Source: Escherichia coli (GTDB lineage Bacteria; Pseudomonadota; Gammaproteobacteria; Enterobacterales; Enterobacteriaceae). Taken from it: a DNA stretch of 64,000 bases. A program made the position numbers and the translations under genes. Positions 29,640-31,144 of the stretch are shown in pieces. Positions within the stretch are counted from its first letter, which is position 1. Each line of letters opens with the position of its first letter. Below the pieces are notes generated by a model that did not search any database, was not told the origin of the DNA, and saw only the letters and a list, made by a program, of their open reading frames with translations. The DNA is taken from NCBI RefSeq assembly GCF_024223415.1, contig NZ_CP100500.1, one strand, 5' to 3'.

Positions 29640-29660
29640 TCAGTAAGACGTTTTGTGAGA

Positions 29661-29685
29661 AGGGCCGCGAAAGCGGCCCTTTAGA
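29661..29685 (+). terminator. tktA terminator hairpin
   Basis: gggccgcgaaagcggccc followed by ttt; the same hairpin recurs at 29838-29855. Confidence 0.5.
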
Positions 29686-29689
29686 TTAT

Positions 29690-29835
29690 TGGTAAAGTGC
29701 GCGTTGTTCATGTCGGATGCGGCGTGAACGCCTTATCCGACCTACAAGATCGTGCAAATTCAATATATTGCAGGAAGTATGTAGGCCTGATAAGCGTAGC
29801 GCATCAGGCAGTTTTGCTTTTGCCATCACTCTCAA
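29690..29835. repeat. BIME / REP pair
   Basis: gtcggatgcggcgtgaacgccttatccgacctac ... gtaggcctgataagcgtagcgcatcaggc. Confidence 0.8.
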
Positions 29836-29858
29836 GGGCCGCGAAAGCGGCCCTTTTT

Positions 29859-30767
29859 TTACTTAGTAGAGATAAACGGAACTGTGCTGCCGGGGATCAT
29901 GGTATCGGGCAGTTTACCGTCCCAACGTTCGGCAGTGGTGAGGGCTACAAGTCCGGGATTATCCCGCAGAGCTTCACCGCGCAGGCGGATTGCTTCTGCT
30001 TCAGCCGCACTTTTTAAACGAATAGTTTCAGCCTCTGCCGCGCCTCTTACGCGAATAGTTTCCGCTTCTGCTTTGGCTGCCGCCAGTTTACTGTCTGCTT
30101 CTGCCTGGGCCTGAGTTACCGCTATTTGCGCCTGGATTTTCTCTGTTTCCAGATTTTGCTTACGCGTGGCAATGGCGACTTCTGCTTTCATTCGGTCTTC
30201 AATCGACTTTTCATAAGCGTCAGAAAAATCAATATTTTCAATCTGGACCCCGTCAATTACCACTGGCCCAACAACGGCTTTGCGCATGGCATTTTGCAGA
30301 TCCTGAACCAGTTTTGTACGATCCTGTACAGCGCTGATGGCGGTATATTGGCCGAAAACGTTCTCCAGTTGAGTTGGCAACTGACGGACAATCAGACGAT
30401 CTTTTAATGCTTCAATGGTGTTGTAGGTGGTATAAACCGCGCCTGCTTCTGAAGGTTTAATGTGGAAGCTGACTGATACTGTCATTTGTGCCGGTTGCTG
30501 GTCGCGGCTGTAGGCCTGTAATCCCTGATAGACCACAGCCTGATTACGCGTGGAAATTTTCTCCACGCTTTCCATAAACGGGATCTTAAAACCCAGACCC
30601 GGCTCGGCAACTTTTACGATTTTTCCGTAGCGCAGCAAAATGCCGCGTTCACCTTCATTAACGGTGTAATACGAGAGAAATGGCAGCACAACCACGGCAA
30701 GCACGCCGATGGCGATAGCAAGAGATTTTTGTGGGCGAAATGAGGTTAATGAAACAGGTGCTTTCAT
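29859..30767 (-). CDS. SPFH/band-7 (stomatin/prohibitin-like) membrane protein with a C-terminal Ala/Glu-rich repeat
   Basis: N-terminal TM segment SLAIAIGVLAVVVLPFLSYY, SPFH-like core, then AAAKAEAETIRVRGAAEAETIRLKSAAEAEAIRLRGEA. Confidence 0.65.
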   Translation of the reverse strand: MKAPVSLTSFRPQKSLAIAIGVLAVVVLPFLSYYTVNEGERGILLRYGKIVKVAEPGLGFKIPFMESVEKISTRNQAVVYQGLQAYSRDQQPAQMTVSVSFHIKPSEAGAVYTTYNTIEALKDRLIVRQLPTQLENVFGQYTAISAVQDRTKLVQDLQNAMRKAVVGPVVIDGVQIENIDFSDAYEKSIEDRMKAEVAIATRKQNLETEKIQAQIAVTQAQAEADSKLAAAKAEAETIRVRGAAEAETIRLKSAAEAEAIRLRGEALRDNPGLVALTTAERWDGKLPDTMIPGSTVPFISTK

Positions 30768-31144
30768 GACAATCTTCCTTGAGTAAAGTGTGGGAATATG
30801 TCACATGAGATGAGGAGAAAACAGCCGACAGGTGAGAATTCAGAATCTATAAAGGGGTATAGCGAAAAAACATTGCATTAGGAAAGTATGTTTTCGAACA
30901 TTCAATAAATAAATAGAGATATTCATCACAAATACAATAACAAACAAAATGTTGATTTTGTGATAAGCATAACAAATACAAAGTTGACTTTAAAAATATC
31001 AATTTCATATTGTTGTTATTTAAGGTTTTATTATTTTGGTTTATGGGGTTTTTCTTCTCGCGTACCCAATTGCTTTCATTAAACCGCACGAGTATTTTAT
31101 TTTTACCGCCGGACGGTACCCTAAAAATAAAATAAGGATAATTT

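Follow-up and report, generated by a model that had tools for sequence, protein, structure and literature searches.

The sequence analyzed here, hereafter called the window, is a stretch of 64,000 nucleotides from the Escherichia coli genome GCF_024223415.1 (contig NZ_CP100500.1). Between tktA and cmtB, this window contains a minus-strand gene for a 302-residue SPFH/Band 7 protein, with an intergenic region containing hairpins on the tktA side and an AT-rich spacer on the cmtB side. At a 100%-identical locus, PGAP labels the gene “prohibitin family protein” (RefSeq WP_000646940.1). The gene is monocistronic; it is convergent with tktA, with which it has a hairpin terminator in common, and divergent from cmtBA. 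The features of the locus are listed below, with the evidence for each.

29660–29682, plus strand: hairpin copy 1, AAGGGCCGCGAAAGCGGCCCTTT, just 3' of the tktA stop codon (direct and inverted repeat, allele alignment)
29683–29833, no strand assigned: BIME/REP element (Rfam ES036/CssrF, allele alignment)
29834–29862, no strand assigned: hairpin copy 2 and T-run, terminator-like, common to the convergent tktA and SPFH genes (terminator scan)
29859–30767, minus strand: prohibitin family protein CDS, 302 aa plus stop codon, WP_000646940.1, an HflC/prohibitin-like SPFH protein
29862–29942, minus strand: conserved C-terminal tail, residues 276–302 (column conservation in the family alignment)
29961–30221, minus strand: single long helix, residues 183–269 (AlphaFold2, pLDDT 85–95 across most of it)
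29973–30104, minus strand: four 11-residue units, u0 AEADSKLAAAK, u1 AEAETIRVRGA, u2 AEAETIRLKSA, and u3 AEAEAIRLRGE (lag peaks, DNA identities)
30006–30071, minus strand: u1 and u2, the pair to which the Escherichia-specific 33-nt duplication gave rise (26/33 nt identical, the most similar pair)
30138–30665, minus strand: SPFH/Band 7 domain (Pfam residues 35–210; alpha/beta core 33–181 in the AlphaFold2 model)
30672–30734, minus strand: signal-anchor transmembrane (TM) helix, residues 12–32 (hydropathy, charge count, AlphaFold2)
30768–31144, no strand assigned: AT-rich divergent spacer separating the SPFH gene from cmtB, 377 bp, 31.0% GC
30774–30780, minus strand: Shine-Dalgarno-like AAGGAAG, 6 nt 5' of the SPFH ATG (read from the sequence)
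30959–30974, plus strand: CRP-like site, TGTGATAAGCATAACA, one mismatch to the consensus (pattern search, a lead only)

The 219-bp intergenic region between tktA and the SPFH gene (29640–29858) consists of a BIME/REP element between two copies of one terminator hairpin; neither the element nor the hairpins were part of the earlier description of this locus. Rfam ES036/CssrF matched positions 29746–29788 with 53.5 bits (gathering score, 37.6), and naRNA4 gave a sub-threshold match. The BIME and one hairpin copy form a 174-bp module, which is present in zero, one, or two copies among E. coli strains, and two alleles (L086 and L087) without the BIME have a 44-bp spacer containing the second hairpin alone. 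Further REP copies occur elsewhere in the window. On the cmtB side, positions 31067–31144 are identical to K-12. On the minus strand, the promoter scan detected no sigma-70-like site that could serve the SPFH gene, and the two plus-strand sigma-70-like matches located 5' of cmtB were within the expectation from shuffled sequences. CRP reportedly activates cmtB in K-12 (PMC3105977), and the K-12 spacer has a similar site that aligns with the CRP-like one; the window as a whole contained 29 matches to the CRP pattern against 25 expected, i.e., there was no excess over chance.

The original prediction of an SPFH/Band 7 membrane protein with one N-terminal TM helix was supported by Pfam, hydropathy, and AlphaFold2. 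Band_7 (PF01145) matched residues 35–210 over model positions 2–176 of 176 (E = 5.6e-32), which places the protein in the SPFH/Band 7 superfamily. Its sole hydrophobic segment lies at about residues 15–33 (19-residue Kyte-Doolittle mean, 2.3), and the N-terminal flank of the TM helix has no acidic residues and carries +3/0, against +3/−2 beyond the helix, a modest difference in net charge. The AlphaFold2 monomer model (pLDDT 84) contains the TM helix, the SPFH domain, and one long helix, and together with the Foldseek matches it reproduces the architecture of the superfamily: an anchor, an SPFH alpha/beta domain, a long coiled-coil helix, and a C-terminal tail. The long helix of the model is the counterpart of the coiled-coil wall in SPFH cages. 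The tail has the pattern L-T-x-A-E-R-W-D-G-K-L-P-x-T-M-x-P-G-x-x-x-P-F, and its pLDDT was <50 in the monomer model. In PADLOC, no defense-system family matched the protein at E ≤ 0.01, and our literature search found no experiment on this protein and no paper on its gene.

Within the superfamily, the closest relatives are HflC and HflK. A sequence search of the PDB retrieved HflC (2.4e-13), HflK (9.3e-11), QmcA (9e-7), and prohibitin (3.6e-5), and a search with the family profile gave HflC (8.5e-20), HflK (2.9e-12), prohibitin (3.9e-11), and prohibitin-2 (8.4e-11). The full-length Foldseek matches included HflC (1e-17), PHB1/2 (8rrh; 7.5e-16), erlin1/2, stomatin, and QmcA. In the HMM search for a subfamily, HflC and HflK were again the closest, yet the scores fell below their cut-offs: 60.5 bits against 134.4 (TIGR01932) and 53.2 against 427 (NF008259) for HflC, and 37.4 bits against 159.4 (TIGR01933) and 35.7 against 660 (NF008181) for HflK. 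Scores this far short of the NCBIfam cut-offs mean that the protein is no orthologue of HflK/C and that FtsH binding need not follow. The score against flotillin FloT (NF058507) was 17.4 bits, far below the cut-off of 700. Similarity to eukaryotic prohibitins, as expected of the p-prohibitins (SPFH4), is detectable; it is weaker than that to HflC. In the SPFH4 table of Hinderhofer et al. (2009), one member is given for E. coli E22 and none for K-12 (PMC2636767); ZP_00728121 of E22 is a candidate counterpart of the present protein.

HflC and HflK (SPFH3), which form the FtsH-modulating periplasmic cage (PDB 7vhp/7wi3), are thus the best matches in both sequence and fold, and they have in common with the SPFH protein an N-terminal signal-anchor TM helix, an SPFH domain, a long Ala/Glu-rich helix, and a C-terminal tail. 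The homology extends into the TM/juxtamembrane motif V-x-EGERG-x-x-LR-x-GK, with residues 17–78 aligned to the corresponding stretch of HflC. However, identity in the structural alignments is only 22–23%, the protein is shorter (302 aa against 334 aa for HflC and 419 aa for HflK), and its gene lies outside the hfq-hflX-hflK-hflC operon and stands alone where hflK and hflC form a pair, with no second SPFH gene within ∼25 kb. The prohibitins (SPFH4; PHB1/PHB2) likewise have an N-terminal anchor, no NfeD partner, and a predicted orientation away from the cytoplasm or matrix. They differ in that PHB1/2 form a hetero-oligomer, whereas the SPFH protein is presumably a homo-oligomer, which moreover is nearer in sequence to HflC than to eukaryotic prohibitins. 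SPFH4 and SPFH3 proteins seldom coexist (Hinderhofer et al., 2009; PMC2636767), and the coexistence of this gene with hflKC is a rare exception to that norm. QmcA-YbbJ and YqiK-YqiJ (SPFH1/SPFH2) have the SPFH fold and a cage-type architecture in common with the protein (Foldseek 8z5g_A, E = 2.2e-12), but they are less similar to it in sequence than HflC/HflK, face the cytoplasm, and share their operons with NfeD genes (PMC10434171, PMC2636767), whereas the SPFH gene has no NfeD neighbor. A parallel in gene layout is offered by the SPFH paralogues that stand alone in Pseudomonas aeruginosa, PaFlo9 (PA14_41420) among them, which are also monocistronic, without NfeD, and patchy across species, and whose deletion had little or no phenotype in the study that described them (PMC13086221). 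Pseudomonas proteins at 55–60% identity to the SPFH protein are common; the resemblance to the PaFlo proteins noted here is one of layout and distribution.

The lack of an NfeD partner had been regarded as unusual. The absence itself was confirmed at this locus, with no NfeD gene within ∼25 kb on either side in the PGAP annotation of the matching genome (99.97% identical to the window across 49.9 kb), but it is not an anomaly. NfeD partners are confined to SPFH1, SPFH2, and SPFH5, and HflK/C (SPFH3), the p-prohibitins (SPFH4), and SPFH6–12 have none (Hinderhofer et al., 2009; PMC2636767). SPFH proteins of the HflK/C and prohibitin types thus ordinarily lack NfeD; the gene lacks the adjacent NfeD of SPFH1/SPFH2, as the p-prohibitins do. 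At ∼70 homologue loci in other genera, NfeD was not among the 20 most frequent Pfam families of 150 neighboring ORFs, all of which have at least two members, and it may be present at a few loci. This neighbor set is noisy because the ORF caller at times chose antisense ORFs in high-GC loci.

We then consider the origin of the gene. It was found at the tktA|cmtB site in 1,830 of 5,426 complete E. coli genomes (34%), with 94–100% identity; among the carriers are ST131 and S88, both B2 strains, as well as IAI39. K-12-type genomes have tktA and cmtB side by side, as stated in the original prediction. The earlier proposal was that the gene, together with its AT-rich flank, is an islet that some E. 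coli lineages acquired horizontally at this site. The absence of the gene from ∼66% of complete E. coli genomes, K-12 among them, is in keeping with this proposal, as are homologues at 71–74% identity on Enterobacter and Kosakonia plasmids, the patchy distribution of the family across Gamma- and Alphaproteobacteria, and the lateral transfer that Hinderhofer et al. (2009; PMC2636767) infer for the SPFH families as a whole. However, the gene occurs at the same site and in the same orientation in E. albertii, E. whittamii, and Escherichia sp. MOD1-EC7003 (a cryptic clade), and a homologue adjoins tktA in Pseudocitrobacter. Its dS was 0.21–0.34, comparable with those of tktA, cmtA, and yggP; dN was as low as that of tktA, and dN/dS was 0.007–0.05 with dS up to 0.45. 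Its GC content is 49%, against 51% for the window, and no integrase, transposase, tRNA, other mobility gene, or flanking direct repeat was found at the locus. Thus, mobility genes, border repeats, atypical composition, and absence from sister species, by which a genomic islet is recognized, were all lacking. In the plasmid collection there was no E. coli plasmid copy; the lone 99% match was a 4.9-Mb chromosome filed as a plasmid. The spacer is AT-rich as described, but this is no sign of acquired DNA, because the K-12 spacer is equally so (32.9% GC against 31.0% in the window). The two spacers are weakly collinear, which is suggestive only (local score, 27; shuffled sequences, 20.5 ± 2.7, some reaching 34).

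These results show a chromosomal gene that is functional and has been inherited vertically, and the comparison of loci indicates that it is ancestral to the genus at the tktA|cmtB site. Contrary to the islet proposal, it is a known and conserved gene at this site, annotated by PGAP and carried by about a third of complete E. coli genomes. Because the site is fixed across Escherichia and dS resembles that of the flanking core genes, the K-12 state is one of loss or replacement, and about two-thirds of E. coli lack the gene because the segment was deleted or replaced. A gene held for so long in Escherichia and lost in K-12-like strains is no recently acquired island. The proposal is therefore largely refuted on the time scale of Escherichia, and we consider it improbable, with an acquisition before the split of Escherichia and Pseudocitrobacter being possible. 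Since two-thirds of the genomes lack the gene, it is dispensable.

The Ala/Glu-rich repeat in the long helix also proved to be old rather than labile. A three-fold repeat visible in both peptide and DNA had been reported. At the peptide level it was evident: AEAETIRVRGA, AEAETIRLKSA, and AEAEAIRLRGE occupy residues 233–265 (29973–30071), and self-identity peaked at lags 11 (0.29) and 22 (0.28), against 0.05–0.18 at other lags. At the nucleotide level it is real but weak. The DNA repeat search found three copies at 33-nt spacing with 73–77% identity, the units agree at 18–26 of 33 nt (55–79%), and TRF reported no period-33 array, just a spurious 11-nt match of 2.1 copies. The DNA repeat is too diverged to be a tandem repeat in the usual sense. 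One could nevertheless suppose an unstable tandem repeat, i.e., a contingency locus, or an assembly artifact: the period is in frame, and rare length variants exist, one unit being missing from a metagenomic sequence of 285 aa and two from an E. albertii protein of 280 aa. We sampled 60 of the 1,830 matching records, one every ∼30 ranks, and all 59 full-length copies were exactly 909 bp and ungapped. With the extra unit present in every one of these copies, the repeat is neither an artifact nor variable among strains, and its three-unit form is common to E. coli, E. albertii, E. whittamii, and Escherichia sp. MOD1. Given this constancy and the divergence of the units, instability or misassembly is extremely unlikely. 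Of 93 cluster representatives of the family, 90 have one unit fewer, and only three Escherichia sequences have the extra unit, which is an old duplication particular to Escherichia. An Ala/Glu-rich sequence with an 11-residue period is what such a helical wall normally has, and because an 11-residue unit equals three helical turns, the Escherichia helix would be ∼1.6 nm longer with its register kept.

As for function, the protein is likely to assemble with itself into an SPFH cage that sits on the inner membrane and faces the periplasm, its orientation, oligomeric state, and client being suggested by homology. HflK and HflC face the periplasm (PMC10434171), and as in these proteins, the N-terminal signal anchor would set the SPFH domain, the ∼87-residue helix, and the C-terminal tail in the periplasm. 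Many copies would assemble into a homo-oligomeric dome above a patch of the inner membrane, in which the SPFH domains would lie on the membrane, the long helices would form the wall, and the tails would shut the top. The enclosed patch may confine or shield a membrane client, and by analogy with HflKC and mitochondrial prohibitins, the first candidate would be FtsH or another membrane protease or quality-control substrate. The opposite topology, a stomatin- or flotillin-like scaffold that faces the cytoplasm and borrows a distant NfeD partner (YbbJ or YqiJ), draws on the fact that QmcA and stomatin are also detectable homologues and that Hinderhofer et al. allow NfeD partners from another operon (PMC2636767). 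We regard it as a poor candidate, because HflC and HflK match best in sequence, TM segment included, the FloT score is negligible, positive charges cluster ahead of the TM helix, and NfeD is not among the neighbor families listed for the homologue loci. The explanation that we prefer overall, and hold with good confidence, is that of a vertically inherited, HflC/prohibitin-like SPFH gene that was lost in K-12 and would encode a periplasmic homo-oligomeric cage.

A more specific version is tentative, and we consider it rather doubtful: about a third of E. coli would carry a fifth SPFH scaffold absent from K-12, a periplasm-facing homo-oligomeric cage beside HflKC with its own client instead of or besides FtsH, in which the extra unit would make the dome ∼1.6 nm taller than in other genera. 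Because E. coli also has hflKC, and SPFH3 and SPFH4 rarely coexist, plain redundancy with HflKC is an uncomfortable explanation.

The SPFH gene is an ordinary, already annotated membrane-scaffold gene, neither a new island nor a new system, and it opens no long-standing question. Its practical value is that of a correction, in that an annotated, core-like Escherichia gene is wanting in the laboratory strain. The K-12-based statement that “E. coli has four SPFH proteins” fails for about a third of complete genomes, including ST131 and S88. For cage studies, this single-gene, probably periplasm-facing SPFH paralogue may serve as a simple homo-oligomeric comparator to HflKC, and it offers natural length variants of the wall helix.

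Between tktA and cmtB, the interval 29640-31144 of the window consists of three parts, a minus-strand ORF and the spacers on either side of it:

29640-29858, tktA-side spacer, after the tktA stop codon, 219 bp
29859-30767, minus strand, SPFH ORF, 909 bp (302 aa)
30768-31144, cmtB-side spacer, to the cmtB start codon, 377 bp

A Shine–Dalgarno-like AAGGAAG lies 6 nt 5' of the ATG of the ORF. In E. coli O78 strain 3 (NZ_CP084096.1), the annotation reference, which is 99.97% identical to the window over 49.9 kb, PGAP names the product "prohibitin family protein" (WP_000646940.1). 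The protein contains a complete Band_7/SPFH domain (Pfam, residues 35-210, E = 5.6e-32), and residues ~15-33 are its sole strongly hydrophobic stretch, as expected of the predicted N-terminal TM helix. Because the ORF, the domain, the repeat peptide and the AT-rich spacer up to cmtB (31% GC over 377 bp) were all found, the original prediction described the locus correctly.

The protein was then placed within the SPFH families. All matches to NCBIfam models were sub-threshold: HflC scored best (60.5 bits; cut-off, 134.4), followed by HflK (37.4 bits; cut-off, 159.4) and FloT (17.4 bits; cut-off, 700). The HflC and HflK scores are so far under their cut-offs that an HflK or HflC orthologue was rejected. 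Sequence matches in the PDB were to HflC (E = 2.4e-13), HflK (9.3e-11), QmcA (9e-7) and prohibitin (3.6e-5), and a 93-member family profile matched HflC (8.5e-20), HflK (2.9e-12), prohibitin and prohibitin-2 (~1e-10), and QmcA and stomatin (~1e-6). An AlphaFold2 model (pLDDT 84) has the following parts:

residues 12-32, TM helix
residues 33-181, alpha/beta SPFH core
residues 183-269, single helix
tail, low confidence

In full-length Foldseek comparisons, this model matched HflC (1e-17), PHB1/2 (7.5e-16), erlin1/2, HflK, stomatin and QmcA, which are subunits of solved SPFH cages. On these results, the protein belongs to the HflK/C-prohibitin branch and is a canonical cage-type SPFH protein. In the scheme of Hinderhofer et al. 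(PMC2636767), the group that it fits is the p-prohibitins (SPFH4); in that paper's table, SPFH4 has a member in E. coli E22 and is empty for K-12.

The lack of an adjoining NfeD gene had been regarded as an anomaly. The annotation shows no such gene for about 25 kb in either direction, but NfeD partners are known for SPFH1, SPFH2 and SPFH5 only, and SPFH3, SPFH4 and SPFH6-12 have none (PMC2636767). In a Pfam scan of 150 neighbour ORFs of homologues at about 70 loci in other genera, NfeD was not among the 20 most frequent families (each with at least two members), and the neighbours showed no conservation at all. The missing partner is therefore the expected state of the subfamily.

With the gene alone as the megablast query, matches were obtained in 1,830 of 5,426 complete E. 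coli genomes (coverage ≥ 80% in 1,818), with 94 to 100% identity and each carrier having essentially a single copy. The gene is present, for instance, in ST131, S88, clone D i2, IAI39 and an O145 strain, and is missing from K-12 derivatives and O157:H7. The full tkt - gene - cmtB arrangement, searched for with flanks, is present in 1,814 genomes. Thus, this is a known, PGAP-annotated gene fixed at the tktA/cmtB site. Its predicted absence from K-12 was confirmed: K-12-type genomes have, in place of 29640-31066, a 235-bp sequence that is unrelated or barely related to it and contains a different tktA terminator, and the final 78 bp 5' of cmtB are identical to the window.

The AT-rich spacer had suggested a horizontally acquired islet. 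In a search with one genome per species, however, E. whittamii, Escherichia sp. MOD1-EC7003 and E. albertii proved to carry the gene in this orientation, with tktA and cmtB on either side of it, and a Pseudocitrobacter homologue (85% identity) also adjoins tktA convergently. The window was compared with these taxa.

Divergence of the SPFH gene and its neighbours
SPFH gene: dS 0.21-0.34, dN 0.004-0.006
tktA: dS 0.21-0.24, dN 0.003-0.006
cmtA: dS 0.26-0.62, dN 0.004-0.015
yggP: dS 0.30-0.36, dN 0.005-0.016

Since its dS is close to those of tktA, cmtA and yggP, the gene has aged with its neighbours, and with a dN/dS of 0.007-0.05 it is under constraint equal to that of transketolase. Its GC content of 49% differs little from the 51% of the window, and annotation and a repeat search revealed no mobility gene or border repeat at the locus. 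The cmtB-side spacer is equally AT-rich in K-12 (32.9% GC vs 31.0%), so this composition belongs to the cmtB upstream region and does not mark foreign DNA. The shared site, matching dS, GC content and lack of mobility genes argue against an acquired islet; the gene is ancestral at its site, and both the island and the missing-partner interpretations were incorrect. The parsimonious reading is that K-12, O157 and others descend from lineages in which it was lost or replaced. Family-level horizontal movement does occur: the family occurs patchily among the Gamma- and Alphaproteobacteria (one genome per species), and homologues with 71-74% identity were found on Enterobacter and Kosakonia plasmids in the plasmid collection. 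An acquisition predating the origin of the genus Escherichia is conceivable. The only 99% "plasmid" match is explained by its record (NZ_CP134663.1, 4.9 Mb, E. coli), which is evidently a chromosome.

The predicted Ala/Glu-rich three-fold repeat occupies residues 233-265 and is directly preceded by AEADSKLAAAK, giving four 11-residue units (u0-u3). Identity within the protein peaks at lags of 11 (0.29) and 22 (0.28). At the DNA level, the units have 14-26 of 33 nt in common, and a repeat search detected three copies at 33-nt spacing; Tandem Repeats Finder called no period-33 array. Among 93 cluster representatives, the segment is 11 residues shorter in 90 (57-88% identical; Kluyvera, Klebsiella, Kosakonia, Erwinia, Salmonella, Pseudomonas and others), and the extra unit is confined to the three Escherichia sequences. 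The closest units, u1 and u2 (26/33 nt identical), are taken as the duplicated pair on the basis of this similarity. That u1 and u2 differ at seven positions, and that E. coli, E. albertii, E. whittamii and Escherichia sp. MOD1 all have the three-unit form, shows the duplication to be old. Copy number was also compared across strains: all 59 full-length copies, sampled at regular intervals along the ranked list of the 1,830 E. coli records, were exactly 909 bp in one ungapped piece, which excludes an assembly artefact or a hypervariable locus. Shorter variants occur but are rare: one metagenomic sequence has 285 aa and one E. albertii protein 280 aa. The AlphaFold2 model places the repeat within the distal third of its long helix; as 11 residues correspond to three helical turns, the helix would have gained about 1.6 nm through the duplication and kept its register.

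A BIME/REP element makes up the tktA-side spacer (Rfam ES036/CssrF, 53.5 bits vs a gathering score of 37.6; the match to REP-derived naRNA4 was sub-threshold), with one copy of the terminator hairpin AAGGGCCGCGAAAGCGGCCCTTT on each side. The copy number of a 174-bp module of the BIME and one hairpin (29660-29862) differs between E. coli strains (0, 1 or 2). Where the module is missing, tktA and the SPFH gene, which converge, have a single hairpin in common within a 44-bp spacer. The cmtB-side spacer is a divergent regulatory region. Its CRP-like site (30959-30974) aligns to a similar site in the K-12 allele, and cmtB is activated by CRP in K-12 (PMC3105977); as a putative regulatory site, it is only a lead. 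ATAACAAAnAnAAnGTTGAyTTT occurs twice at 32-nt spacing within 30918-30991, along with further short direct/inverted repeats (ATCACAAATACAA / TTGATTTTGTGAT). These repeats, which overlap the CRP-like site, may bind regulators of cmtBA or of the SPFH gene.

Further features were noted elsewhere in the window. The dN of cmtB (31145-31588) among Escherichia is 0.027-0.072, vs 0.003-0.016 for tktA, cmtA and yggP. The CmtB of the window is K-12-like (99.3%), several different CmtB proteins occur among SPFH-positive genomes (differing WP accessions in ST131, A32 and others), and one E. coli-labelled representative genome reaches no more than 88% identity. This divergence suggests recombination breakpoints or relaxed selection in this cryptic operon. 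Elsewhere, an IS1397 transposase (IS3-family, programmed frameshift) lies between loiP and speB (25129-26477), and PGAP annotates a 243-aa hypothetical protein (23183-23914) between speB and speA, which adjoin each other in K-12. Between epd and the kinase/fumE genes, 36471-39547 encodes a PPC-domain DNA-binding protein and an ECF-transporter module (S component, T component and two ATPases), and looks like another block that K-12 is without. A hypothetical protein and a TRAP-transporter substrate-binding protein are encoded between argO and mscS (44721-46748).

For this gene, whose family, fold, purifying selection and stand-alone organisation are established, a literature search found no experimental work on the protein. 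Three positive charges and no negative charge precede the TM helix, homology to HflC extends through the TM and juxtamembrane region, and HflK and HflC are described as facing the periplasm (PMC10434171); these features point to a cytoplasmic N-terminus with the bulk of the protein probably periplasmic. It would assemble into a homo-oligomeric dome, as in the HflKC, prohibitin, stomatin and QmcA structures, and might confine an inner-membrane patch together with a client; by analogy, FtsH would be the candidate to consider first. Several points weaken this mechanism: the gene coexists with hflKC, two thirds of E. coli genomes dispense with it, and SPFH paralogue mutants of P. aeruginosa have almost no phenotype (PMC13086221). 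Overall, the SPFH gene is an annotated, genus-ancestral, uncharacterised paralogue missing from K-12, mildly new only in its 11-residue extension, which is specific to Escherichia, and in its occurrence alongside HflKC.
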